From IMG/VR virus record IMGVR_UViG_3300022751_000001, positions 14,950 through 78,949 of that record: a stretch of 64,000 nucleotides of DNA, one strand, 5' to 3'. Numbering within the stretch: the stretch's first letter is position 1; every line of letters begins with the position of its first letter. The stretch comes from a virus. Its lineage: Duplodnaviria; Heunggongvirae; Uroviricota; Caudoviricetes. This document shows, one piece after another, positions 17,205-58,426 of the stretch. The notes under the pieces are model-generated. The model saw nothing but the letters and a program-made list of their open reading frames with translations, had not been told where the DNA came from and ran no database searches. The translations under genes were made by a program, and so were the position numbers.

Positions 17205-17237
17205 CAATCACCAAAAAAGATTAGGGTCTTCGCCTAA
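17205..17237 (-). terminator. rho-independent terminator (minus strand)
   Basis: on the minus strand TTAGG-cgaagac-CCTAA then TCTTTTTTGG; stop codon of gene 17221 lies in the 3' arm. Confidence 0.5.
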
Positions 17238-18528
17238 CACGTTCAAGTTGATTACGGTTAGTAACCATACGATACATACGCCAACGTTGAACATTTCGAG
17301 AGGTATTAGCTTTATTAGCTACTTTATGCCAGATATGATATATAGGACCCTCGATTCTTAGCGGTTCACCCGAGACAATTTGTGCCGCTTTATAGAAAAT
17401 GTTATCTTCAGCACCCCAACCAACGCATCGCTGGTCAAATCCATGCACTTGCTCGTAAACATTACGCGGAACAATCACGATTAACGACTGCGTACCGAGC
17501 GGTTCGGTGCGAACGCTTTCGAGTTCTTCTTTTGCAAACTTATATCTGAATATCTGCTTGTCTAGCATATATAACGAGTTGGCTCTATTTACCGACTCAA
17601 CCCGAGTGAACGGTATTACGACTTTTTGCTCTTTAACCGCTAACGCGATACCTTTTTTCAATACGTCTGGATCAATATACGCATCTGAATCGACGAATAT
17701 ACCGACCGACCAGTTACCTGCGGCTTTCGCAGCGATATTCAAGCCTGTACTTCGGTTGAACATTCCTTCGACGTGGTGCCCTTCGTATACTTTGTATAGC
17801 AATTTACTCCAGTAGTTGTCTTTGATATGTCGCCAAATGCGGTCGCGGTGACCGTTATCATTCCTTCGAGCAACCATAATAGGTACTTCAAACTGATTAC
17901 GGTATTCTGCGTATACAGGTAATTTGCTTTCATCGACAAAACGCCAACCGCCCTTACCCTCATCGGGTGCAGTGGTAATGTTTGCGGTGTCTTGGTCAGC
18001 GCAGTAGATTAACTCGCTACTGTTTTTTACGTCTTGAAATGGGTGAGTCGTGAAACCTTCATTGTGAATCCGCATTGATAAGTTCTCGTGTTCGCGACCA
18101 TAGCGACCGAACGCATTGTGCATACCACCGACAATCGGGATAAGTGTCGCATCAAGGTAGAGCATACACCCCCGTGATTTATCGAAAGCATTTACTGTGT
18201 CGGTTTCTGCGATTTTTTTAATCTTCCAGTGGTCGGGTGCATTTTCGAAGTTGTATTGTAGGTGCGGTTCAGGTGAATTAACATACGGTTCCCACCATTT
18301 ATCAGCAATTGGGTAGGTGTCGTCATCAAACAAAAAGATTTGATCGCAACCAGAATCCATGAGGTTCTCGATACCTTGGTTCTTATTTACAGCGATACCC
18401 CAGTAGTCTTTATCGAGCGTGACGACCAGCGTGGAGTTTTTTGGCATCACCTTTTTGAATTGCTTGATGGTATTCTCAAGAACCCTCTTGCGTGAGGGGA
18501 CAGTTGAGATTGCAATTCCTATTTTCAT
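17221..18528 (-). CDS. two-domain glycosyltransferase
   Basis: 435 aa; N-terminal half parallels gene 18525-19244 (MKIGIAISTV...FLFDDDTYP, DxD motif); C-terminal half has FVDSDAYI...GWGAEDN (GT-A fold). Confidence 0.6.
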   Translation of the reverse strand: MKIGIAISTVPSRKRVLENTIKQFKKVMPKNSTLVVTLDKDYWGIAVNKNQGIENLMDSGCDQIFLFDDDTYPIADKWWEPYVNSPEPHLQYNFENAPDHWKIKKIAETDTVNAFDKSRGCMLYLDATLIPIVGGMHNAFGRYGREHENLSMRIHNEGFTTHPFQDVKNSSELIYCADQDTANITTAPDEGKGGWRFVDESKLPVYAEYRNQFEVPIMVARRNDNGHRDRIWRHIKDNYWSKLLYKVYEGHHVEGMFNRSTGLNIAAKAAGNWSVGIFVDSDAYIDPDVLKKGIALAVKEQKVVIPFTRVESVNRANSLYMLDKQIFRYKFAKEELESVRTEPLGTQSLIVIVPRNVYEQVHGFDQRCVGWGAEDNIFYKAAQIVSGEPLRIEGPIYHIWHKVANKANTSRNVQRWRMYRMVTNRNQLERVRRRP

Positions 18529-23590: not shown

Positions 23591-24333
23591 ACGACTTAAA
23601 GCGAATACTCATTATCTTCATTGGTGCGGCAGTGTTGATTGGTCTAGGCTTATGGATCAAAGATTTCGCAGACACAGAGGGTTGGAAAACCGCGTATAAA
23701 TACAATATCGCAATACCCGCAGAGAAGCAGGACGAGTTCAACTACGACGTTGACTCACACCAAGGGCTCGTGCTATCTCGCGGTGAGTTCGTTACTAAAA
23801 ACGGTATCAAGTTCGACGATCAAAAAGAAACGTTCACATACGTAGAGGAGGTACATGAACGCTACACTCGACACACACAGACATATTCTTGCGGTTCTAG
23901 CAAACACCCACGTACTTGTACTCGTACCTACTACAGCTGGGACAGAGTGGGGAGCGAAGAAAAGTATGCTGATAAAATCACCTACTTTGGGCGAGACTAC
24001 AGCGCGAATAACTTCAATATCGGTAACTTCGTCGAACGAGTTGAAGGGTATCACCGTAAAGACTTTAGTGACAGATACTATTACAATATAGTACCGCTCA
24101 AGTTCACCGCGTCATTCTTGACGAACACCTCAGAGGGGCGACTTGATTCTGCATTTGGTGGTCAGGTGAAACTCGAAACAGTCTCTATTGAACAGCTAAG
24201 AAAAGACTCGCTAAGCTACAAGCTGGTGAATAATATCATCGTGACAATCGTATCAATTATCATTCTCATCGGTGCGTGTATCGGTGCGTGGTCTTGGGTA
24301 TGGGCAGACGGTAAGTGGAGTATGAAGCACTAG
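23587..24333 (+). CDS. membrane protein (N- and C-terminal TM helices)
   Basis: 248 aa; ATGA overlap with the upstream gene; hydrophobic termini (ILIIFIGAAVLIGLGLW... and IIVTIVSIIILIGACIGAWSWVW). Confidence 0.5.
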   Translation: MNDLKRILIIFIGAAVLIGLGLWIKDFADTEGWKTAYKYNIAIPAEKQDEFNYDVDSHQGLVLSRGEFVTKNGIKFDDQKETFTYVEEVHERYTRHTQTYSCGSSKHPRTCTRTYYSWDRVGSEEKYADKITYFGRDYSANNFNIGNFVERVEGYHRKDFSDRYYYNIVPLKFTASFLTNTSEGRLDSAFGGQVKLETVSIEQLRKDSLSYKLVNNIIVTIVSIIILIGACIGAWSWVWADGKWSMKH

Positions 24334-24641
24334 AGGGAGTCGGTATCAAGTGAGTTGACTTGGTACTGCATATAATAGTCGACAACATCATCGTCAGGGT
24401 ACTTAGCCCAGACGGTAGTGAAATCATTGTCATCGAGTATAGACATAAGTTCTGGCTGGTTGAATAGCATTATAGCCTTCATCGCTGTTTGACCCATAGC
24501 TTCACGAGTATGCACCACGTGGTTCATTGTCTCGTATTCTTCAGAGTAGAGGCGAACGACCGTATTGTCGCGGTCAAGTTCGTAGTCTTCGTTCCCTGTG
24601 TGAATTTCGATTACTGGGCTTTCTTCTCTAGGTATCAGCAT
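24330..24641 (-). CDS. hypothetical protein
   Basis: 103 aa acidic. Confidence 0.45.
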   Translation of the reverse strand: MLIPREESPVIEIHTGNEDYELDRDNTVVRLYSEEYETMNHVVHTREAMGQTAMKAIMLFNQPELMSILDDNDFTTVWAKYPDDDVVDYYMQYQVNSLDTDSL

Positions 24642-24822
24642 GTTCGTTCTCCACTGTCAGCTGTGTGCTGTATTCAATTTCGTCTCTCAGAGCTGCGATT
24701 GCGAGTGAGCGGGTAAGCTCGCCACGATCAACCATTCGCATGTAGTCTTCAAACCGCTTTAATCTATAGAGCTTAATCTCTTCTTCGATTTTGCGGGGTG
24801 ACTTCCATTCTTTCTCTGTCAT
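24628..24822 (-). CDS. hypothetical protein
   Basis: 64 aa. Confidence 0.4.
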   Translation of the reverse strand: MTEKEWKSPRKIEEEIKLYRLKRFEDYMRMVDRGELTRSLAIAALRDEIEYSTQLTVENEHADT

Positions 24823-24831
24823 CTAACCTGA

Positions 24832-25158
24832 TTATAGCTGAATACCATTATCTTTACGGTTGTGGCACCTTCGACACAGCCACTGCAGGTTGCTTTGAAC
24901 ATATCGCAGGTCAGGGCGAACGCTGCGTTTAATAATATGGTCGACATCGGTTGCGGGGTTACCGCAGAACGAACACTTCGCATCGGGGTTATTAGCCACA
25001 AAGATTTTGCGAGCTTCTTGCCATAAGTCATAGTGCTTACCGCGTTGCTTGATTGCTTTACGCGGTTTTGCTTCTACCTCTTTGCGGGGTCGTTGCGAGC
25101 ATTGGAACGAGTAGTGCTTGTCAACCGCTTTGCAGTATTTGCAGACGGTCGCTTTCAC
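24832..25158 (-). CDS. HNH endonuclease
   Basis: CSFCGNPATDVDHIIKRSVRPDLRYVQSNLQWLCRRCHNRKDN; extra Cys pairs at the N-terminus. Confidence 0.7.
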   Translation of the reverse strand: MKATVCKYCKAVDKHYSFQCSQRPRKEVEAKPRKAIKQRGKHYDLWQEARKIFVANNPDAKCSFCGNPATDVDHIIKRSVRPDLRYVQSNLQWLCRRCHNRKDNGIQL

Positions 25159-25748
25159 TATTTGACCCTGACGCTAATACCGCTGTACTGGTCGAGAACG
25201 TCTCGAATGCTGTCGTTGATCTCAAGGATTGTCTCTTCGTCAGCAGCCTTGATTGTGAGTGAGTATGTCTTTTCTTTCTCATCAACCATACTTGAGAGAG
25301 CTTCGTCTTCTTCTTCGTTAACGTCCACGAACGCTTCATTTGCAAGTGTATAATCAAGTGCGTCAAAGTGTATGTTCGAAATATCCAAGTGTTCAAGGCC
25401 TACTACGAAGTCATTGAAGCCATCTTCTGTGATGACACCGTACTGTGACGAGATGAACAAAATCTTGCGACGAGCTTCATCGTAGTCTTCAGCTTCTACA
25501 GCCACGTATGGGACTTCAACGTCCCAGCCTTCTTTTTCCATGACCTTTTGACGTGAGTGACCGTCGAGCAGATATGTGTCACCATCGTGCTGCCAGACGA
25601 AGATAGGCAGGTAGAACCCGTCGTCAATGATTGACTGTTTGAGCTTGTCGTAGTTCTCTTGCGTGAGCACTTTCAATTCACCTTGTACGGGTATAGCTTC
25701 ACTGATTTTTACTAGTGGTAGGTTGGTCGGGTTGTGTACTTTAATCAT
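25158..25748 (-). CDS. ParB-like nuclease domain protein
   Basis: ...YLLDGHSRQKVM... (DGHxR ParB motif); TAATG-type overlap with the HNH gene. Confidence 0.55.
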   Translation of the reverse strand: MIKVHNPTNLPLVKISEAIPVQGELKVLTQENYDKLKQSIIDDGFYLPIFVWQHDGDTYLLDGHSRQKVMEKEGWDVEVPYVAVEAEDYDEARRKILFISSQYGVITEDGFNDFVVGLEHLDISNIHFDALDYTLANEAFVDVNEEEDEALSSMVDEKEKTYSLTIKAADEETILEINDSIRDVLDQYSGISVRVK

Positions 25749-25758
25749 AATTTGTCTC

Positions 25759-26907
25759 CTAGTTTACTTTGACCACCATTGAAAAACGGGGGCCGAGGTT
25801 TGTTGGGTTGCAGACAGCCATCTCGTTAATGACATCGACTGCGTACACCTTTCCTGTGTATTTCTTTTTGATAATGTCCTCTACCTTTATTCTAGCGAAC
25901 TTTGGACGATTAACCACCAATTGCGTTGAGTAGCTTGTTGTAGTTATAGTTGTTGGGTAGCCAATCTTAAAGAAAAGGTCTGCGAGCTGTTCTGCTTGTT
26001 CAACATTGCTGACTGTGAAGTCGAGCGGGGGACCTTTTGAGGGAATACCATTGTCGAAGTCCCACTCGGGTTTCTTGATGCGGAGTATCTCCTCGATGAA
26101 CGCATACACCGCGTCGGGTGAGGTTGAGCGCATAATCACATTTGGTATTGTTCGCTGAGATATACGCTTACCGATGAACCGTCTGAGTGAACGTGCCGCA
26201 CCTGCACCACTACGAAGAATTACCAGTCGTTCGAGGTGACCATTTCTTACAGCACTTGAAGTTCGATATGCGATTCGGTTTCGATCAAGCAAATCCATAA
26301 GACGCGTCGGGTCATCTTTCTCTCGTACCCTGAACATAGTGTAGGTAGAACGGCTGGTGTCGTCACTTTTAATTGTGCCCCTTAGCACCGCGTACGCGAG
26401 AAGTCTGAAGTATTCTGACTCGCTCATATCCACTGAACCATTCTTGATGAGACCCGCTTGGTGACGCTTATCTTTCATCGTGAACTGCAGAGGGCTTTTG
26501 ACAATCGCTTGCACATTCTTCTTGATGTCTTTGAGCTTGATGGTGTCGATTTGCTCGACCGCTATTCGGTTGCCAGTAAGAACGCTCTTGCGAAACAGCG
26601 TCTTTCTAATCGGTATGGTGCTATCTTCGGTGAGCGAGAAGTGACTAATAATACCACCCTGTCGCTTGAAGATATGCACATGTTCATAAATGTATCCGTC
26701 ATAATCGTACTCTGTAATGTTGAGTACTGGCGAGAATATACCGTGACCCGCGAAGTTGGTCGTTAAAACCTCGTCACCTACATTTAATTCGGTGACGTTT
26801 TTCCAACCGTTGACGGTTAACAGGTTATTTGAAGGGGTGAGCATACTACCACCTAATATACGCGCCAACAGGCTTTGGTTTAAACGCGTTGTAAGCCATG
26901 TTAGCAA
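25759..26907 (-). CDS. Hint-domain (intein-like / BIL-like) protein, possibly with a homing-endonuclease region
   Basis: SMLTPSNNLLTVNGWKNVTELNVGDEVLT matches intein N-terminal block A but with Met in place of Cys1; C-terminal ...KVYAVDVINEMAVCN resembles intein block G with a terminal Asn; 62-nt out-of-frame overlap with terL. Confidence 0.5.
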   Translation of the reverse strand: MLTWLTTRLNQSLLARILGGSMLTPSNNLLTVNGWKNVTELNVGDEVLTTNFAGHGIFSPVLNITEYDYDGYIYEHVHIFKRQGGIISHFSLTEDSTIPIRKTLFRKSVLTGNRIAVEQIDTIKLKDIKKNVQAIVKSPLQFTMKDKRHQAGLIKNGSVDMSESEYFRLLAYAVLRGTIKSDDTSRSTYTMFRVREKDDPTRLMDLLDRNRIAYRTSSAVRNGHLERLVILRSGAGAARSLRRFIGKRISQRTIPNVIMRSTSPDAVYAFIEEILRIKKPEWDFDNGIPSKGPPLDFTVSNVEQAEQLADLFFKIGYPTTITTTSYSTQLVVNRPKFARIKVEDIIKKKYTGKVYAVDVINEMAVCNPTNLGPRFSMVVKVN

Positions 26908-28252
26908 TCATCATCGCGTCAGCCCAGTCAGGTGACCGACCGATTTTCTTGCGAAGTACGCTTTTCTTGACCACTCGAGTTTTACCTGTGTCGAGGTCGT
27001 AGGTGTGGGCAATAAGTTCTTTCTTAATTTCTGATACGTTGAAGTCTTTTGCACCCTCAAGCAATTTCATACGGCCAGAGTCTAGGTCGAGCATAAGGTT
27101 ATAGAAGCCGTCTGAGCGGGTTTGTTGGGTCGCAATGTATACATTTACCTTCCAGCCCTTAGAACGCAAGGCATCGCGTGCTGAAGCCCCCACACCGTTA
27201 CCCTCAATCGTGATGTACTTAGCAACTGCAGGAGTGAACCCATTCTTGAGTGCGAAGTCGATAAGTTTCTCTGCGATAGCGTGACCGATTGCTTGGTCGC
27301 TGCCCTTTGGTGATTTGATTTCAATAGCTTTGACCGCGACACCATTTTCAACGAGTACAGCGATGGTTGCGTCCTTACCGCTGTCTGAAAGGTCGACACC
27401 GATTGCTTTGTTGAACTTGTCGTCTACTGGCTCGTCTAAATCAGCTTCGAATGTCGTAGCTTTGTCGAGTAGCTTCATCGGGAACAACGAGTCATCGTCA
27501 TCAAGGTAATTCCAGTCACCGTCAAGCAAACGCTTGCGTTCTTGTGGTGGTAGCTTCTTCAAGTTTTCGATGTAGTTCGGGTCGATGAACGGGTTAGATG
27601 TTACGGTTGCACGAATATACACGTCGTAAGCTGGCACCTTTGTACCGTCTACCCACACTTCACCGTTCTCCCACTTTTGAACTGGTCCCATGCCACGCTT
27701 TTCATAAGGGTCGTAGAACTCTTGTCGCAACCAGTTAGTTGAAGGGTTACACGCGAGCAGTGTTGTACCGACTAGACCAAACTCGCGATTCATCCATCGT
27801 CCTACACGTGAAGAAAGCACGTCAACCGCGCGCTTATCTGTTTCACCTGCTTCGTCAACGAGTGCAATAGTCAATTCAAGTGAACCGAGACTTTCGAAGT
27901 CAGGGTCTGATGGCTTCGCAGTTAGATCAAGAAACTGAACTCGCGAACCGTTGCGGTATTCGAGAAAGTTTTCACGACCGTTAATAACGTAGTCGTCTTG
28001 GGTGATACCGAGTGCGGGGTGTACTTTTGAGAGCAATGTAGAGAGTGTTGTTTGTCGCAAGCTCATCAACTCTTTTCGAGCGAGACCAATACGTATACCA
28101 GCGTACTTTCTAGACATTAGCGCAACAATAAGACATATAAAGAATGACTTACCACCACCCGCACCACCACCATAAAGAATACGGGTACTTTGCGGGTTTA
28201 AGAACTCGTTATAAGCGAGCAACTGCGCGTCTGAAAATACGACATCTGCCAT
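26846..28252 (-). CDS. terL: terminase large subunit
   Basis: Walker A GGGAGGGKS, LLACNPSTNW, Walker B-like LVDEAGE, C-terminal nuclease region; 468 aa, apparently complete. Confidence 0.85.
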   Translation of the reverse strand: MADVVFSDAQLLAYNEFLNPQSTRILYGGGAGGGKSFFICLIVALMSRKYAGIRIGLARKELMSLRQTTLSTLLSKVHPALGITQDDYVINGRENFLEYRNGSRVQFLDLTAKPSDPDFESLGSLELTIALVDEAGETDKRAVDVLSSRVGRWMNREFGLVGTTLLACNPSTNWLRQEFYDPYEKRGMGPVQKWENGEVWVDGTKVPAYDVYIRATVTSNPFIDPNYIENLKKLPPQERKRLLDGDWNYLDDDDSLFPMKLLDKATTFEADLDEPVDDKFNKAIGVDLSDSGKDATIAVLVENGVAVKAIEIKSPKGSDQAIGHAIAEKLIDFALKNGFTPAVAKYITIEGNGVGASARDALRSKGWKVNVYIATQQTRSDGFYNLMLDLDSGRMKLLEGAKDFNVSEIKKELIAHTYDLDTGKTRVVKKSVLRKKIGRSPDWADAMMIANMAYNAFKPKPVGAYIRW

Positions 28253-28827
28253 TAAGATTCATCGACTTCTGCATCGAGTTCGGTGCCTAGGTGTTCTTCA
28301 ATCATTTCAGAAGCATTTGATTCGATGTACTTCGGTTCTTCGCCCTGTAGCTCCTCAACAGTGTATGTTGGGTTGACCACACGAATCGTGAAGTCTGGCT
28401 TACCGAAGAATGAATCGTCTTCAGCTTCGACGGTTACCTTTTCACCGAACCCAGTCTTGCGAACCCAGTCAGCAGCTTTGAGGTTACCTGACATCGCCAT
28501 AGTAATCATACTGGTTGTCATAATATATGCGGCATTCTTAACAGGTAGACCTTGCCACCAGTCAGGTTGGTTACGGATCACCTTGTCAATCCACTCAGGG
28601 TCAGCAAGCACTTCTTGCACGATTTTTGAGAGGTTTTTCACAGATGGTTTACGTTGCACAACGTCACCGTCTTTTGTTAGCTGATAGTCTGACGGGTCCA
28701 TGCCCGCAGCTTCCATAAGTTCTTTCTTTTCTTTTGCAATTTCGCGACCACGTTCAAGTTGAGCGATGAGTCGGGCTCGTCGTTCTTCAGGGGTCTCTTT
28801 TGGTTTTTGGTCGGGTTGATTATTCAT
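28252..28827 (-). CDS. putative terminase small subunit
   Basis: 191 aa; charged N-terminus; directly upstream of terL with ATGA overlap. Confidence 0.5.
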   Translation of the reverse strand: MNNQPDQKPKETPEERRARLIAQLERGREIAKEKKELMEAAGMDPSDYQLTKDGDVVQRKPSVKNLSKIVQEVLADPEWIDKVIRNQPDWWQGLPVKNAAYIMTTSMITMAMSGNLKAADWVRKTGFGEKVTVEAEDDSFFGKPDFTIRVVNPTYTVEELQGEEPKYIESNASEMIEEHLGTELDAEVDES

Positions 28828-28841
28828 AGTTCTATTACCTA

Positions 28842-29756
28842 TTATACTTTCTTATGCTCTTCTCGAAGGATAAGAGGTGCAGTGTTACGCCAGTTAATAC
28901 GGTGGTGAATGCGAAACGCGTTATTGTCTTTTTCTTTACCCGCGCCCTTGATCGCAGATGTGTTGTAAAGAACCGAGAACTTTGCACCTGACGGGTGGGT
29001 GATAATTGTGTACGCGGTCTTGGTATAGGTACCGAGCGATTTGTACATCTCAGACATACCGCCAGTGTTTGTTTGGGTAGTCTTCTGGTTGAGTGCGATG
29101 AACGCTGTCGTTAAGAACAAGAACCCTTGGTGTGCGAGTGACGTGTAGGTGTTTACGTCTTCGTTAATACGACCGACAAAGTTGAAACGTCTGTCAGTTG
29201 AGCAAATGAAGCTATTCATCACCTTGCGTCTGAATTGGTCGCTTACCATCTTCGAACCGCCACCACCGATGTAGTCACCAGACTGCGCCATGCAGAGTGA
29301 ATACATCAGGGGAACCGATATGAAGTATTCGAGCATTATGTCAAAGACCTTATCGAGCGTCTGTTCTTCGGGTAGCGGGGATAGCATAAGCGAAGAGTAT
29401 TCGATGTTTTCGTTCATTCGCCACCTGAAACTGTCGTAGTCATCATCAAGCTGGATAAAATACTTATACCCTAGCTTTTCAGCAATATCGAACGAAGCGT
29501 TGCGAGCGTAAAAGATAGTGCGACGTTCACCTGAGTTGTCTACCTCATCAAACCGCTCTGCGATTTCATTCTTACTAAACGTGACGATTTTGTCATCACC
29601 CCATACTCTACGGTACTCGGGTAATGTTGCGTCTTCATCGTCCACAACGAGCTTCCAATCACCTGTATAACCGTGACGCTTGAGCGTGTTTACGGTAACT
29701 TGGTTATTCGGTCGCCCGTGCGTCAATATCAGTGCTACGAAGTTTTTGTTTTCCAT
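28842..29756 (-). CDS. hypothetical protein, possible GT-A-like nucleotide-sugar transferase
   Basis: 304 aa; ALILTHGRP...VVDDED...QLDDDYD (DxD-like motifs); weak. Confidence 0.35.
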   Translation of the reverse strand: MENKNFVALILTHGRPNNQVTVNTLKRHGYTGDWKLVVDDEDATLPEYRRVWGDDKIVTFSKNEIAERFDEVDNSGERRTIFYARNASFDIAEKLGYKYFIQLDDDYDSFRWRMNENIEYSSLMLSPLPEEQTLDKVFDIMLEYFISVPLMYSLCMAQSGDYIGGGGSKMVSDQFRRKVMNSFICSTDRRFNFVGRINEDVNTYTSLAHQGFLFLTTAFIALNQKTTQTNTGGMSEMYKSLGTYTKTAYTIITHPSGAKFSVLYNTSAIKGAGKEKDNNAFRIHHRINWRNTAPLILREEHKKV

Positions 29757-30174
29757 GTATTTCTTTGTCGTAATTTGTTTGTTTTGATCGTACGCTCATA
29801 AGGCGTTTATTCATTTGAACGTAGCCCTCTTCGATTGCTTTGTCAAAGTCAATAATCACGAGGTGTGACGCTTCAAATAGTTCTTGTACTTCTTTAGGTG
29901 CGTGAGCGTAGTATTCAGCGATTTTTCTATAGTCATAGACATAGTGTCGGGTCGCAGCTTTGCGAAGGAACACTTGAATCTCAGATGGTATATTTGATCC
30001 GCGAATACGCTCATTTAGGTCACGTACTTTTTTGTCGTCGACCAGTTCGTCGATGTCTGGCTTATCGCCAGTTGGCGTATAAATCGGGGTTTTTATTTTG
30101 TCGCTGTATATCTCACTCATTCTGTATATTATTGTACTGGAAAATGCTATACTGACTTTCAAATGGCAGAGCAT
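29704..30174 (-). CDS. hypothetical protein
   Basis: 156-aa ORF; the more likely start is the internal MSEIYSDK ATG (~30120). Confidence 0.4.
   Translation of the reverse strand: MLCHLKVSIAFSSTIIYRMSEIYSDKIKTPIYTPTGDKPDIDELVDDKKVRDLNERIRGSNIPSEIQVFLRKAATRHYVYDYRKIAEYYAHAPKEVQELFEASHLVIIDFDKAIEEGYVQMNKRLMSVRSKQTNYDKEIHGKQKLRSTDIDARATE
30145..30153 (+). promoter_or_regulatory. extended -10 promoter (TGcTATACT)
   Basis: tgctatact upstream of the 30163 start, in a divergent intergenic region. Confidence 0.35.
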
Positions 30175-30333
30175 TTAGACAACGTAAGGTACCTACCCGT
30201 GCCGAAAGAGTTGACACCGCAGCAACGCGAACATTGGGAATACCAACTCGAGGTTGCAGAACGCGCAAGAGAATATGCGCTACGAATGCTGGGTCGTCTT
30301 GGGGTAGAAAAAGGATTGAATGAAGACTGACGA
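30163..30333 (+). CDS. hypothetical small protein
   Basis: 56 aa (MAEHLDNVRYLPVPKELTPQQREHWEYQLEVAERAREYALRMLGRLGVEKGLNED). Confidence 0.3.
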
Positions 30334-30523
30334 AGACATCTTAAAGGGTAAAGACCATGAACACGAATACTACGCGTCACAATGCGAAGAGGGTTGTGGT
30401 TGCGATTATTTGCATTTGGGTTGCAAAGACACTGACTGCACATTTTACGCAATTGCTGACGGGTGGAAAGACTGCAACGTCGACTGGGAATACCGTATCA
30501 AGGAGCTGAAAAATGAATCGTGA
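30320..30523 (+). CDS. hypothetical Cys-rich small protein
   Basis: 67 aa with 7 Cys and several His. Confidence 0.4.
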   Translation: MKTDEDILKGKDHEHEYYASQCEEGCGCDYLHLGCKDTDCTFYAIADGWKDCNVDWEYRIKELKNES

Positions 30524-30839
30524 AGAAAAGCTGAATAAGTACCAACGCGAACACACCTTATTATTAAATGAAATCAAAGAACTGCAAGAGCAAAAGAAGC
30601 CCATCGAAAACCGCTTACGCAAACTGAACTCACGTCGGCACCGAGTCGGTATGGCTATCTACGACTTGAAGCACGATGGTATGGTGCCAGAGGTGACTGA
30701 CCACGCAATTGTTCGTTATTTGCAGCGCGTGGAAGGGTATGATATAAATGACTTAAAGCTAAAGGTATCGCAATCGAAGCAAGCGATAAAAGTGGGCAAC
30801 GTAATCGTAACCGTTAATGAGGACCGAGAAGATGACTGA
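30513..30839 (+). CDS. hypothetical protein
   Basis: 108 aa, coiled-coil N-terminus. Confidence 0.45.
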   Translation: MNREEKLNKYQREHTLLLNEIKELQEQKKPIENRLRKLNSRRHRVGMAIYDLKHDGMVPEVTDHAIVRYLQRVEGYDINDLKLKVSQSKQAIKVGNVIVTVNEDREDD

Positions 30840-31119
30840 TAAAGACATACGACTCCTGAAGAAGATTCGTCAACACTTACACGACCTGCACGTTGAATGG
30901 GAGAACGACCCAGAGACAGACGGTCACTGCAAAAGTACCGAGGGATATGTCGGGCTTATGCTGAGTTACCCTAACTGGTTCGAGACCGATGACTACTTAA
31001 ATGCAAAGCCCGAAGTTGGCTGTGAGGTTTACTCCTACCTGTTTGGGCCGCACCGTTTGCACCAATACAACACTATGGAAGAAGCATGGGCTGCAGTTAA
31101 AACCTGGACGTACCGCTGA
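30817..31119 (+). CDS. hypothetical protein
   Basis: 100 aa. Confidence 0.45.
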   Translation: MRTEKMTDKDIRLLKKIRQHLHDLHVEWENDPETDGHCKSTEGYVGLMLSYPNWFETDDYLNAKPEVGCEVYSYLFGPHRLHQYNTMEEAWAAVKTWTYR

Positions 31120-31418
31120 TGCACAAAAACGTACCAGACATAAATGACCTGACCGATATTATCGACAAGTTCATGCAAGACGCACACGACAACATGGCAG
31201 CTGGTCGCAACTCATTGCGTGCTGAGAAGCGAGCGATGGAAGCTGTCGTTAAAGAGCTTGCCTTTCGAGACGAGTATGCGGTTAAGACGACGATTGCGAT
31301 GTTCTTGCGTATGCAACTTGAAAGTATCAGTAAAGAAGATAAACGCATAAATGTGGACGAAGTGAAGCGTCGTGCGATAGAATACCTACAGGAGAACCGC
31401 GATGAGCAAATACGATGA
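31119..31418 (+). CDS. hypothetical protein
   Basis: 99 aa; overlapping start/stop. Confidence 0.45.
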   Translation: MHKNVPDINDLTDIIDKFMQDAHDNMAAGRNSLRAEKRAMEAVVKELAFRDEYAVKTTIAMFLRMQLESISKEDKRINVDEVKRRAIEYLQENRDEQIR

Positions 31419-31587
31419 ATTAAGGTTACAATTCCTGAAAGATCACGAGAAAGCTGACGAGATGGTTTTTAAGCTGAATGATGACTTTATCACCCCTGTT
31501 AAAGCTATTTATCTTGCACCAGACCCCGAAGTAGATTATGATGAGCTTGACAAACTAATAGAAGAAGTCAATAAGGAGATTGAATAA
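31402..31587 (+). CDS. hypothetical acidic protein
   Basis: 61 aa. Confidence 0.4.
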   Translation: MSKYDELRLQFLKDHEKADEMVFKLNDDFITPVKAIYLAPDPEVDYDELDKLIEEVNKEIE

Positions 31588-57280: not shown

Positions 57281-58426
57281 CTAGGCTAGGTGGTCGAGGT
57301 GGTGAGAGGGGTTATACCAACCATCAGTCTTGAGATCGTGTAGCCGAGAAAGGTAAGCGTCGAACTGTAAAGCAACAGGTTCAAGAGAGAAACGTTCTTG
57401 TGCGCGTTTACGAATAACACGACGTTGCGCGGTCGTAAAGTTTTCAGTTCTACGTACAGCTTCTAAGAAGTCACCGAACGTGTTACAGCGGTAACCGTCG
57501 ACACCTTGTAGCACTGTTTGCGCGAAGATACCGAAGTTTGTCGTGATGACAGGGGTACCAGATAATAGCGATTCAACGTGGACGTTACCGCCAGGTTCAA
57601 GATAAGTGGTAGGCATAAGTACGGCATCAGCGCGACTCATAAGTCGACCGCGTTCTTTAACACCGATTGTACCGATATATTCACCGTAACCAGTGAACTC
57701 TTGCCCTTCATTAAGCTGCCCAGCGATAATAAGACGCTTGCCGAGCTTTTCTGCGACTTGTTGAGCGATGTTATAACCCTTACGGTCAATCAAGCGACCG
57801 ATGTAGAGTAGATAATTACCCTTTTTGTCACCACGTTTCACTGCAAACGGGAACTGTTCTTTAGGGTGGTAAGGTGGAATCACTGCGTCGTAGAACTTTC
57901 CGTCATCATCGTGTCGTTCACCGTACACATAGTGTTGGTGAGTGATAGATTCGAACACCTTGTAGGGTGAATAAACACCTGTGTAGCCAATAAATAGCTC
58001 TGGTGCAATCAGATTAGGGATAGCATCAGTGACTTGTTTCTGACAATAGCCCGCTAAAACACCGAACAGAACGTCTTCGTCTGGGTGTTCTTTGATGTAA
58101 TCCTGCAAGAAGGTGATAGTTCGCTTGTTGTAGAGCTGCCAGTGAGCGTCTGTAGGCTCCCAAGTAAGGTTGTACATCGTCTTTTTGTACGCGAGCGGGT
58201 CACCGAAGAATTTTTCTTGCTCTTTCTTCGTGATAATAGGCACGTGTGAGTGACCGTGTTCGACAATATCGCACTCTTCACCACCCAAAGTAATGACTTT
58301 ATAGCCAATGCGAGCCATCATAATAGCAAAATTGCGCACCTTAGATTGGTACGCGTCGCTGGAGTATTCTGTGGTCAGGTGGGTGTGTGGTAGTCCTGCG
58401 ACTACGATAGTGAATTTATCGCTCAT
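57281..58426 (-). CDS. glycosyltransferase, GT-B fold (GT1/GT4-like)
   Basis: C-terminal EPGGNVHVESLLSGTPVITTNFG (E-x7-E-like nucleotide-sugar binding motif); 381 aa. Confidence 0.65.
   Translation of the reverse strand: MSDKFTIVVAGLPHTHLTTEYSSDAYQSKVRNFAIMMARIGYKVITLGGEECDIVEHGHSHVPIITKKEQEKFFGDPLAYKKTMYNLTWEPTDAHWQLYNKRTITFLQDYIKEHPDEDVLFGVLAGYCQKQVTDAIPNLIAPELFIGYTGVYSPYKVFESITHQHYVYGERHDDDGKFYDAVIPPYHPKEQFPFAVKRGDKKGNYLLYIGRLIDRKGYNIAQQVAEKLGKRLIIAGQLNEGQEFTGYGEYIGTIGVKERGRLMSRADAVLMPTTYLEPGGNVHVESLLSGTPVITTNFGIFAQTVLQGVDGYRCNTFGDFLEAVRRTENFTTAQRRVIRKRAQERFSLEPVALQFDAYLSRLHDLKTDGWYNPSHHLDHLA

Follow-up and report, generated by a model that had tools for sequence, protein, structure and literature searches.

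A stand-alone intein derivative, very probably repurposed, directly behind the terminase large subunit gene of phages

Inteins are usually regarded as purely selfish elements, and to our knowledge the only intein known in any depth to have become a host gene is yeast HO, together with its WHO relatives. What, then, is an intein-like open reading frame (ORF) doing as a separate gene behind an intact terminase large subunit gene (terL) in a phage? The locus lies in a 64,000-nucleotide stretch of Caudoviricetes DNA (the window), and its features are collected in Table 1.

Table 1. Features of the terL module and of the intein-derived gene; positions are those of the window
Feature	Positions	Strand	Remarks
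Stand-alone intein-derived gene	25759..26844	-	361 aa plus stop TAG 25761-25759; ATG 26844-26842
N-terminal Hint half, residues 1-135	26440..26844	-	block A, block B, variable beta insert at ~76-135
Degenerate double-motif LAGLIDADG domain, residues 136-315	25900..26439	-	two motif helices
C-terminal Hint part, residues 316-361	25762..25899	-	block F GKVYAVDV, last strand MVVK, Asn361 and then the stop
terL/ORF junction AGGTGG-TAG-T-ATG	26842..26854	-	Shine-Dalgarno sequence, terL stop, 1-nt spacer, start codon
terL, terminase large subunit, 468 aa	26846..28252	-	phrog_2, E 1.5e-31; Pfam Terminase_3 just under the cutoff
191-aa ORF, likely small terminase subunit	28252..28827	-	upstream of terL; no family match
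ParB-like nuclease-domain protein	25158..25748	-	directly downstream; PHROG ParB-like, E ~1e-9; Pfam ParB_N weak
HNH endonuclease, 108 aa	24832..25158	-	last gene of the run; Pfam HNH, E 1.4e-8; phrog_144, E 2.6e-14

The arrangement is not peculiar to one genome. The ORF stands behind terL in 24 of 24 contigs with a terL identity of 56% or more, always at full length, and in none of the contigs with terL at or below 50% identity; its sequences form three subfamilies, A (that of the present ORF), B and C, about 22% identical to each other, across which terL itself diverges by about 40%. Among these contigs there are no empty sites, pseudogenes or tandem copies, and within the window tblastn and blastn found neither a second copy of the ORF nor a duplicated 3′ fragment of terL. 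A comparison with 50,697 cultured phage records by megablast and tblastn gave no match to the region or to the subfamily A/C protein; the nearest cultured terL genes (Cellulophaga, Bacteroides and Polaribacter phages) are only 30-40% identical, hence the lack of an annotated relative.

The minus-strand ORF is a real gene, whose ATG stands 1 nt past the terL stop (TAG 26848-26846), and its relatives start at the same position of the junction with ATG or GTG; at loci L002 and L003 an in-frame TAA lies four codons 5′ of the start. The earlier note on this DNA, which had placed the ORF immediately after an intact terL, was right in this, terL being intact, free of any intein and invariant in its C-terminus ...YIRW; the overlap of 62 nt that it gave belongs only to a mechanically called ORF with a TTG start and disappears with the ATG at 26844. 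The last two codons of terL (Arg-Trp) serve at the same time as the Shine-Dalgarno sequence of the ORF, and the junction AGGTGG-TAR-N-RTG is almost invariant among loci: AGGTGGTA[AG]N[AG]TG is the same in 13 loci of the three subfamilies, adjacent synonymous sites vary, and the single variant, L098 (CAGTGGTAGTCACATG), has a 4-nt spacer. The 1-nt spacing runs throughout the full loci, in more than 20 independent assemblies, with the stop and the ATG/GTG likewise kept, and the junction persists even where other genes have been inserted upstream of terL. A scan of positions 24000-31500 for promoters and terminators gave counts no higher than the shuffle expectation, an uninformative result that is compatible with one compact operon. 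The ORF protein would be made with TerL by termination-reinitiation coupling and hence in comparable amounts.

By fold and homology the ORF protein is an intein, with boundaries within about one residue of the canonical intein boundaries. Sequence searches of Pfam, PHROGs, NCBIfam and the PDB returned no significant match; hhalign aligned the protein to inteins with a probability of 99.9% (E 1.5e-34), and an AF2 model (pLDDT 82.7, pTM 0.77, with 12 sequences only behind it) matched the PhoVMA, TliVMA, PI-SceI, PI-PfuI and PI-TkoII inteins over its full length in a Foldseek search of the PDB (E 1e-11 to 1e-8). The matches of a profile search in 1.84 billion proteins were mostly embedded true inteins, as were all 50 of the top 50 structural matches in BFVD, none of them stand-alone, and a second, word-indexed protein search with a combined profile added only two proteins, both of subfamily C. 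The stand-alone Hint/intein-like protein that had been read from the letters is borne out. The Hint splicing fold is present with blocks A, B, F and G, and DSSP places the C-terminal strands of the model at 324-338, 342-347 and 356-359. The Hint core is better conserved than the LAGLIDADG part, residues 1-75 being the best conserved of all (71% mean identity within subfamily A), and the C-terminal Hint segment is 98-100% identical among close relatives. The protein is basic (pI 9.7), contains a single Cys (C345), and bears no domain added beyond the Hint fold.

The protein should be unable to splice as a classical intein, as had been argued from the Met at position 1 and a Pro after an Asn, and the reasons are these: (i) in HMM and profile alignments Met1 falls on Cys1 of true inteins, so that there is no Cys/Ser/Thr nucleophile, the residues of subfamilies B and C here being Met-Ala; (ii) block B reads T72-E-D-S75, with S75 (codon 26622-26620) aligned to the His that true inteins carry in block B, a Ser nearly invariant in subfamily A, B and C keeping TPxH; (iii) the C-terminus is ...MVVKVN361-stop (N361 codon 25764-25762), with Val for the penultimate His and neither a +1 residue nor a C-extein; and (iv) the ORF is not inserted in frame between exteins, having its own Shine-Dalgarno sequence and ATG/GTG and a stop right after its last residue. 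N361, invariant in subfamily A and replaced by variable residues or Pro at the equivalent position of B and C, is probably the intein-terminal Asn, the hhalign alignment ending near residue 351. The end that had been read as block-G-like, 'VYAVDVINEMAVCN', is actually block F; its Asn, N346, is not terminal, since the protein runs on for 15 residues, and the Pro reported after the Asn therefore follows the wrong one.

Class 3 inteins have a non-nucleophilic residue 1 and are marked by the WCT triplet, Trp B:12, Cys F:4 and Thr G:5 (PMC5050341). Membership of this class, considered in view of Met1 and the invariant Cys345, was rejected: Cys345 is not at F:4 and the triplet is absent, with Ile/Leu/Val at B:12, Ala/Ser/Thr at F:4 (Ala in this ORF) and Lys at G:5. 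True inteins do exist inside terL of related phages, where the earlier note had advised looking for them; these are of class 3, with WCT present, lie in the P-loop and are unrelated to the ORF. An origin of the ORF from them was likewise rejected, with no HMM similarity at E<1e-3.

The middle of the protein has the double alpha-beta-beta-alpha-beta-beta-alpha fold with two LAGLIDADG helices, motif 1 reading ...LLAYAVLR155G (R155 codon 26382-26380) and motif 2 ...FIEEILRIK257K (K257 codon 26076-26074). A LAGLIDADG homing endonuclease has a metal-binding Asp or Glu where each of these helices ends. The degenerate endonuclease that had been suspected there is confirmed as an insert of 180 residues: at the position of the motif-1 acid, a near-invariant Glu in true inteins, 25 of 25 relatives have Arg, Lys or His, and at motif 2, in a register that is uncertain, K257 is aligned to the invariant Asp of GDG and no acid is conserved there. 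No constellation of acid, Lys or Gln is conserved across subfamilies anywhere in the domain. Because of the basic residue at motif 1 and the lack of a conserved acid at motif 2, the sequences make endonuclease activity unlikely; acidic residues do follow a few positions beyond motif 2 (E259/D261/D263, and 'KDG/RDG' in subfamily B), and these, with the uncertain alignment, mean that a non-canonical active site may exist.

The terL C-terminus ...RI(R/S)W is found also in sister clades without the ORF, so that TerL is complete on its own, and homologues of the 191-aa ORF precede terL both in the ORF-bearing clades and in the ORF-less sister clades; the likely small subunit having been kept with and without it, the ORF is an addition and not a replacement. 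The ParB-like gene follows the ORF in all loci of subfamily A and in none of B or C. In this genome the portal and capsid genes are found at a distance from the terL module.

Strong purifying selection acts on all three segments of the ORF (dN/dS 0.03-0.10 overall and 0.00-0.08 per segment, much like the 0.04-0.08 of terL). The ORF is at the same time the most divergent gene of the module, its copies sharing 33-84% identity where those of terL share 77-97% and those of the ParB-like gene 68-90%, and its dS is 2-3 times that of terL, raised most in the LAGLIDADG segment. Allele replacement occurs at this locus: terL genes with 96% identity can be followed by ORF alleles that share no more than 43%, the identity dropping abruptly at the terL stop, and the similarity patterns of terL and ORF are incongruent. 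At locus L002 a suspected conversion of the ORF jointly with the 3′ end of terL found no support, the exchanged part being the 5′ part of its terL.

We therefore regard the ORF, with high confidence, as a repurposed (exapted) intein derivative, and on balance we favor a protein that has given up both splicing and cleaving and acts as a binding accessory; to judge from its residues, it would neither splice nor cleave. Of the proposal of a domesticated intein homing endonuclease targeting terL, the domestication fits, with the ORF throughout the terL clade and under the selection just described, and the endonuclease activity is unlikely, the acids not being conserved. What the protein would bind is a matter for more tentative statements. 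The role that we prefer, though it is less likely than not, lies in the packaging module, where the protein would be an accessory or confer specificity, as by recognizing the packaging start site: the basic LAGLIDADG saddle, with a conserved Arg in place of the metal-binding acid, would bind a specific DNA site, and the highly conserved Hint core would either dock on TerL or, like that of PI-SceI and HO, touch the DNA at further points. With such a role, the fast divergence and the exchange of the DNA-binding middle would be accounted for. Binding through the saddle is not a given for a degenerate LAGLIDADG scaffold, WhiA relying for this on an HTH domain of its own. Against the explanation that we favor stand also the divergence of the ORF, the highest in the module, its raised dS and its cassette-like turnover, the last being expected of a mobile element too.

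A bolder version of the packaging role, which we consider improbable as it stands, makes the ORF protein a third, obligatory subunit of the terminase of this clade. The former extein-binding groove of the dead Hint fold would hold the TerL tail ...YIRW as it would an N-extein, and the nuclease-dead saddle would serve as exchangeable, sequence-specific recognition of the packaging start site, or would guide the TerL nuclease to a site. The result would be a composite, re-targetable endonuclease, and this would also explain the cassette-like turnover of alleles.

Among the rival explanations, the one that survives best, rather unlikely as it is, supposes a selfish element that is still active, after the manner of WHO or of 'intronless homing', settled beside its target terL and cutting rival alleles by a non-canonical active site or through a partner nuclease (that of TerL, the ParB-like protein or the HNH protein), so that the allele at the locus is continually replaced as the element spreads by recombination. 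The site just downstream of a conserved essential gene recalls WHO by FBA1 (PMC7282813) and the phage seg/mob genes; the excess of divergence between conserved flanking genes, the identity break at the terL stop, the dS peak in the LAGLIDADG segment and the incongruent similarity patterns all suit it, and the true inteins that cycle in the same terL genes imply that co-infection and homing occur in this phage group. An element of this kind is nevertheless hard to reconcile with a basic residue in place of the motif-1 acid in every relative, or with the lack of empty sites, pseudogenes, tandem copies and duplicated terL 3′ fragments; the terL 3′ end and the junction are invariant and not allele-specific, the most constrained part is the Hint core, which is dispensable for homing, and the would-be partner genes vary between subfamilies.

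Unlikely too is a repurposed, non-catalytic protein with a job outside packaging, be it in the control of late-gene transcription, as for WhiA, in RNA binding of the maturase kind or in conflict. Its basic character would be fitting, as would the distance of the terL module from the portal and capsid genes; fast divergence under purifying selection is typical of specificity and conflict genes, and a conflict between phage and host or between phages would explain the rapid turnover of alleles. On this supposition, however, it is odd that terL should be the only invariant partner, held by a fixed 1-nt junction through three subfamilies and their terL divergence; the protein has gained neither an HTH nor another domain for binding DNA, and nothing links it to any regulatory target.

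The notion that the ORF is a C-terminal autoprocessing or intein domain of TerL, reached through a sequencing error or a programmed +1 frameshift, deserves very little credence. It is true that the ORF is always in the +1 frame relative to terL, at L098 with its longer spacer as well, and that the SD-like AGGTGG right before the stop has a superficial likeness to the prfB frameshift site. Sequencing error, however, is countered by the same stop, spacer and start in more than 20 independent assemblies, and the frameshift or fusion of which the earlier note had warned is answered by the Shine-Dalgarno sequence and start codon conserved at more than 13 loci. The hypothetical fused product would read W-(S/N/K)-(M/V)-L..., without a conserved nucleophile for autoprocessing of the Hedgehog type; the block B His is missing in subfamily A, tRNA-Trp should by codon-anticodon rules be unable to re-pair in +1 on GGU, and TerL has the same end in the sister clades that lack the ORF. 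Least credible of all is a decaying, functionless remnant of an intein once in or near terL, such as would be left by the excision at the DNA level that had been suggested, because, even with the splicing residues and canonical endonuclease acids all gone, it is contradicted by the low dN/dS in all segments, the intact ORF in 24 of 24 contigs despite their deep divergence, the absence of pseudogenes, the retained SD and start codon, and a former catalytic site that holds a conserved basic residue instead of random ones.

If the protein is a third subunit of the terminase, no repurposed intein would have been described before it from a virus or a prokaryote. The literature searched, whose coverage was incomplete, yielded no account of a stand-alone phage intein, and this is absence of evidence only. 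The family raises the questions of what use a catalytically dead Hint fold can have and whether LAGLIDADG scaffolds act as natural programmable DNA-binding modules for terminases; should DNA binding hold, it would also supply compact proteins that bind DNA at a specific sequence without cutting it. If, on the other hand, the ORF were an unconventional active homing element, then 'beside-the-gene' homing of the WHO type would extend from yeasts to phages.

The endonuclease-containing inteins PI-PfuI (1dq3), PI-SceI (1vde/1jva), TliVMA/PhoVMA (7qss/7qst) and PI-TkoII (2cw7) are splicing in-frame inserts, whereas the ORF stands as a gene of its own, begins with Met1 and lacks the +1 residue and, in subfamily A, the TxxH His. 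The Hint domains of BIL and Hedgehog/Hog proteins sit inside larger proteins, have an N-terminal nucleophile, undergo autoprocessing and lack a LAGLIDADG insert. The larger proteins around BIL domains are bacterial and often secreted or variable, and the Hedgehog type, with Cys1, is joined in frame to the C-terminal end of its cargo, while the ORF is out of frame with terL; the phage protein carries such an insert of 180 residues, is an entire protein with a Met start, is not bacterial and has its best matches among endonuclease-containing inteins, so that the BIL-domain protein that had been suggested is not supported. WhiA/DUF199, one of its structural matches, likewise has a LAGLIDADG scaffold without catalytic acids and has been repurposed as a non-nuclease, DNA-associated transcription factor, but it has no Hint domain, possesses an extra C-terminal HTH and acts as a regulator in cells. 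Free-standing phage homing endonucleases cut the neighboring gene in rival phages ('intronless homing'; Barth et al. 2023, PMC10448857); the T4 seg/mob genes resemble the ORF in being intergenic, stand-alone genes beside conserved genes, at the boundaries of genetic exchange, and differ from it in that their products are GIY-YIG or HNH enzymes whose active sites are intact, in their sporadic distribution and in the lack of a Hint domain from all of them.

The nearest analogues are yeast HO and WHO, stand-alone Hint and LAGLIDADG intein derivatives without exteins or splicing and with a degenerate block G, among which HO is a domesticated member (PMC7282813); like them, the phage ORF is an independently expressed intein-like gene without exteins. 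WHO genes also lie directly downstream of a conserved housekeeping gene, FBA1, where very divergent allele families are found (Coughlan et al. 2020, eLife, PMC7282813). HO and WHO, however, keep active LAGLIDADG sites, while the phage ORF lacks the canonical catalytic acids; they bear a C-terminal zinc finger (Cys-X-X-Cys repeats), while the phage protein ends with the Hint fold; and the genes at WHO loci form polymorphic clusters that include pseudogenes and extra copies of FBA1 3′ fragments, where the phage locus has one intact copy and no terL fragment. Unlike HO and WHO, the ORF is borne by a bacteriophage and is co-oriented and translationally coupled with its neighbor. It would thus be a phage counterpart of HO with new features: a family of about 25 sequences in three subfamilies that keeps the complete intein architecture, in which both activities are apparently gone, and which is coupled to a packaging motor gene, held under strong selection and exchanged in the manner of a cassette.

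The gene that comes directly after terL, both lying on the minus strand, is very probably a stand-alone gene derived from an intein, and the earlier note's proposal of a free-standing Hint/intein-like ORF is borne out, as the product is a whole intein both by fold and by homology. The Pfam Intein_splicing and Hint matches fall below the cutoff, and no match was found among PHROG, NCBIfam or PDB sequences. The AlphaFold2 model, built from a shallow alignment of 12 sequences, is confident (pLDDT 82.7, pTM 0.77), and in Foldseek the whole model matches endonuclease-containing inteins over the full length (PhoVMA, TliVMA, PI-SceI, PI-TkoII and PI-PfuI, E 1e-11 to 1e-8); the middle domain alone resembles I-DmoI, I-SceI and WhiA, and the 50 best structural matches in BFVD include no stand-alone protein. 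A family profile compared with 1.84 billion representative proteins gave 164 matches, most of them true inteins embedded in phage proteins (terL, proteins ThyX-like by eye, a metallophosphoesterase, a prohead protease), and profile-profile comparison with ten such inteins covers residues 1-351 (probability 99.9%, E 1.5e-34). Among the representative proteins, P0107 (334 aa) may be another stand-alone intein derivative; its N-terminus, MMICGKMITNIKGFHKDTKIFT, has Gly at the Cys1 position of the true terL Walker-B inteins, one of which, P0023, has Cys1 (KLKCFHPDTEVFT).

The 62-nt overlap with terL described previously is an artefact of choosing the longest ORF. At the junction, ...AGG TGG TAG T ATG CTC ACC..., the terL stop occupies 26848-26846 and the candidate ATG 26844-26842, and the latter is the real start, because 11 of 11 database homologues have 356-373 aa and the N-terminus M/V-L-T-P, because GTG replaces ATG at the same position in the database loci L001 and L006, and because two others, L002 and L003, have TAA in the ORF frame four codons upstream. 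Thirteen loci share the form AGGTGG-TA[AG]-N-[AG]TG, although adjacent synonymous sites vary, and the sole variant is that of locus L098, CAGTGGTAGTCACATG. As the Arg codon at the 3′ end of terL is always AGG in this comparison, the last two terL codons also serve as a Shine-Dalgarno sequence, and the ORF product would be made alongside TerL through termination-reinitiation.

Coordinates of the intein-like gene, its neighbours and related features in the window and in database loci
Feature	Location	Strand	Details
Longest ORF	window 25759-26907	minus	TTG start, 382 aa
Intein-like gene, true extent	window 25759-26844	minus	ATG start, 361 aa
LAGLIDADG segment	window 25900-26439
terL (terminase large subunit)	window 26846-28252	minus	468 aa; phrog_2 E 1.5e-31
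ParB-like nuclease-domain gene	window 25158-25748	minus
HNH endonuclease gene	window 24832-25158	minus	GTG start
Glycosyltransferases	window 28842-29756, 17221-18528, 57281-58426	minus	several in window
ORF alleles compared	L016 5995-7014, L094 2202-3224
Extra genes upstream of terL	L171 3002-3598, L172 2927-3538 (-)		subfamily A
Downstream ORF in subfamilies B/C	L014 7035-7376, L016 6996-7316, L017 6987-7319, L015 3934-4287, L022 6323-6652
terL alleles of the P-loop intein comparison	L021 805-2217, L022 3410-5305, L023 2783-5305, L015 454-2934

Residue equivalences were drawn from HMM and profile alignments to true inteins. Met1 aligns with intein Cys1; T72-x-x-S75 aligns with TxxH of block B, the Ser being nearly invariant in subfamily A, the group of relatives to which the window ORF belongs; the F:4 position is Ala, Ser or Thr; and the C-terminus, where the alignment is uncertain, is K-V-N361-stop, with Val for the penultimate His and no +1 residue. 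The AVCN segment formerly read as block G in fact closes block F, and the protein continues for another 15 residues. In LAGLIDADG motif 1, Arg155 sits where true inteins have a near-invariant catalytic Glu, a position held by Arg, Lys or His in 25 of 25 relatives. In motif 2, Lys257 falls on the Asp of GDG, which is invariant in those inteins, in a less secure register with acidic residues a few positions downstream; across the 25 relatives no acid is conserved there, the alignment being uncertain. In LAGLIDADG enzymes the catalytic metals are coordinated by one acid from each motif, and on these grounds the protein is most probably not a nuclease. Membership of the class 3 inteins was rejected, the WCT signature of that class (PMC5050341) being absent.

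The loci scanned came from IMG/VR, JGI metagenomes, GTDB genomes and assemblies encoding homologues. Where terL is at least 56% identical to that of the window, the ORF lies directly after it in 24 of 24 contigs (about 17 clearly distinct); at terL identities of 50%, 40-47% or about 31% the contigs lack the ORF, a portal gene or other genes coming after terL, and no empty site, pseudogene, second ORF copy or terL fragment was found in the loci scanned. Two more stand-alone families emerged, subfamily B (327-351 aa) from the profile search and subfamily C (344 aa) from the locus scans, with only about 22% identity between A and B/C. Downstream of the ORF, subfamily A loci have a ParB-like protein, whereas those of B and C have a conserved ORF of ~110 aa; terL is therefore the only constant neighbour, and the terL-ORF pair is intact even where genes are inserted between terL and the 191-aa ORF upstream. 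No cultured phage carries the gene.

This 191-aa ORF, likely TerS, occurs both in clades that have the intein-like gene and in clades that lack it. Of two loci with insertions between the 189/191-aa terS-like ORF and terL, L171 and L172, one has gained a family-2 glycosyltransferase gene and the other an ORF of 203 aa on the reverse strand, and both keep the 1-nt terL-ORF junction. The B/C downstream ORF (about 105-117 aa), which matches no family, shares ~19 nt with the 3′ end of the intein-like gene and occupies the slot of the ParB-like gene of A. In the window, the ParB-like and HNH genes end the terS-like/terL/ORF run, the HNH start overlapping the ParB-like stop by 1 nt; terminase-linked HNH genes are typical of some cos-type phages. 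One glycosyltransferase, TAGT/PF20691-like and placed just upstream of the packaging genes, matches a PHROG family annotated beta-glucosyl-HMC-alpha-glucosyltransferase, and the phage probably hypermodifies its own DNA. Subfamily B terL and ORF also occur on two contigs of 2.3-2.6 kb (CAYUUV010000066.1, CAYUUV010000068.1) binned in a Candidatus Saccharibacteria MAG, which may point to the host or reflect mis-binning of phage DNA.

Some relatives, and likewise the sister clade L026, L030 and L032, carry true class 3 inteins inserted in the terL P-loop (GGGAGGGK|); these have the WCT triplet (EHRW, KCIMVD, TVTHN|T) and no nucleophile at residue 1. Among terL genes that are 92-98% identical, some are empty (470 aa), some contain a mini-intein (631 aa) and some a full LAGLIDADG-intein (826-840 aa), which gives a snapshot of the homing cycle. 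These inteins coexist with the stand-alone ORF, and no similarity between them was detectable.

For close pairs, the ORF gives a dN/dS of 0.03-0.10 as a whole and 0.00-0.08 in each of its N-Hint, LAGLIDADG and C-Hint segments, and terL one of 0.04-0.08. In every pair compared, no gene of the module has diverged as far as the ORF (33-84% identity; terL 77-97%, ParB-like 68-90%, TAGT 80-96%), and within the same genome pairs the ORF has a dS 2-3 times as high as the neighbouring terL. Mean identity within A is 71% and 62% in the Hint core versus 46% in the LAGLIDADG domain, where dS peaks (up to 2.98 versus 0.41 for terL) while dN/dS stays below 0.1, which suggests that this central domain has been exchanged between lineages. 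Between loci L016 and L094 the ORF proteins are only 43% identical and those of terL 96%, nucleotide identity dropping from 94% to about 45% in a sharp break at the terL stop codon; over all pairs, terL and ORF similarity correlate with a Spearman coefficient of 0.83, driven largely by the subfamily split. The universal presence of the ORF, this break and the low dN/dS show a locus permanently occupied, whose alleles are exchanged, each under purifying selection.

The ORF, devoid of the splicing residues and canonical nuclease acids, is coupled to terL; it occurs across the whole of one terL clade, and selection maintains it. Its protein may act as a non-catalytic binder, and a packaging-associated specificity or accessory role is tentatively favored, because no partner other than terL is invariant, the protein is basic (pI 9.7), the exchangeable part is a DNA-binding-type domain, and the Hint fold is too well conserved for a relic. 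The main alternative, a selfish element either like WHO ('weird HO', stand-alone yeast elements related to HO) or of the 'intronless homing' type, would agree with the cassette turnover of alleles, but it appears improbable given the missing catalytic residues, the universal occupancy of the locus and the constrained Hint core. A TerL-ORF fusion or frameshift, a decaying intein remnant, and the bacterial intein-like (BIL) domain protein suggested in the earlier note are each contradicted by the start and junction, residue and selection features tested.

As to origin, the gene ends match the intein boundaries within about one residue on both sides: the subfamily A protein has M1 at the Cys1 position and Asn as its last residue, and that of B starts with an additional Met before the Ala at position 1 and extends one residue past the terminal-Asn position. 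Since, moreover, sister clades that lack the ORF share the terL C-terminus ...RI(R/S)W, the gene would be better explained by an intein-coding unit inserted ectopically right behind the terL stop than by an in-frame intein that decayed at the C-terminus of TerL. The true inteins closest to the ORF occur in a variety of phage proteins and show no particular association with terL.

WhiA is a precedent for a nuclease-dead LAGLIDADG scaffold, and PhoVMA for an intein with an inactive endonuclease domain. In a literature search of incomplete coverage, no such stand-alone intein-derived gene was found described in phages. The nearest analogues are the yeast HO and WHO elements, which are likewise stand-alone intein-like genes, the WHO genes being highly divergent and situated immediately downstream of FBA1; unlike the phage ORF, however, they carry a zinc finger, are active as nucleases and form clusters with pseudogenes (PMC7282813).
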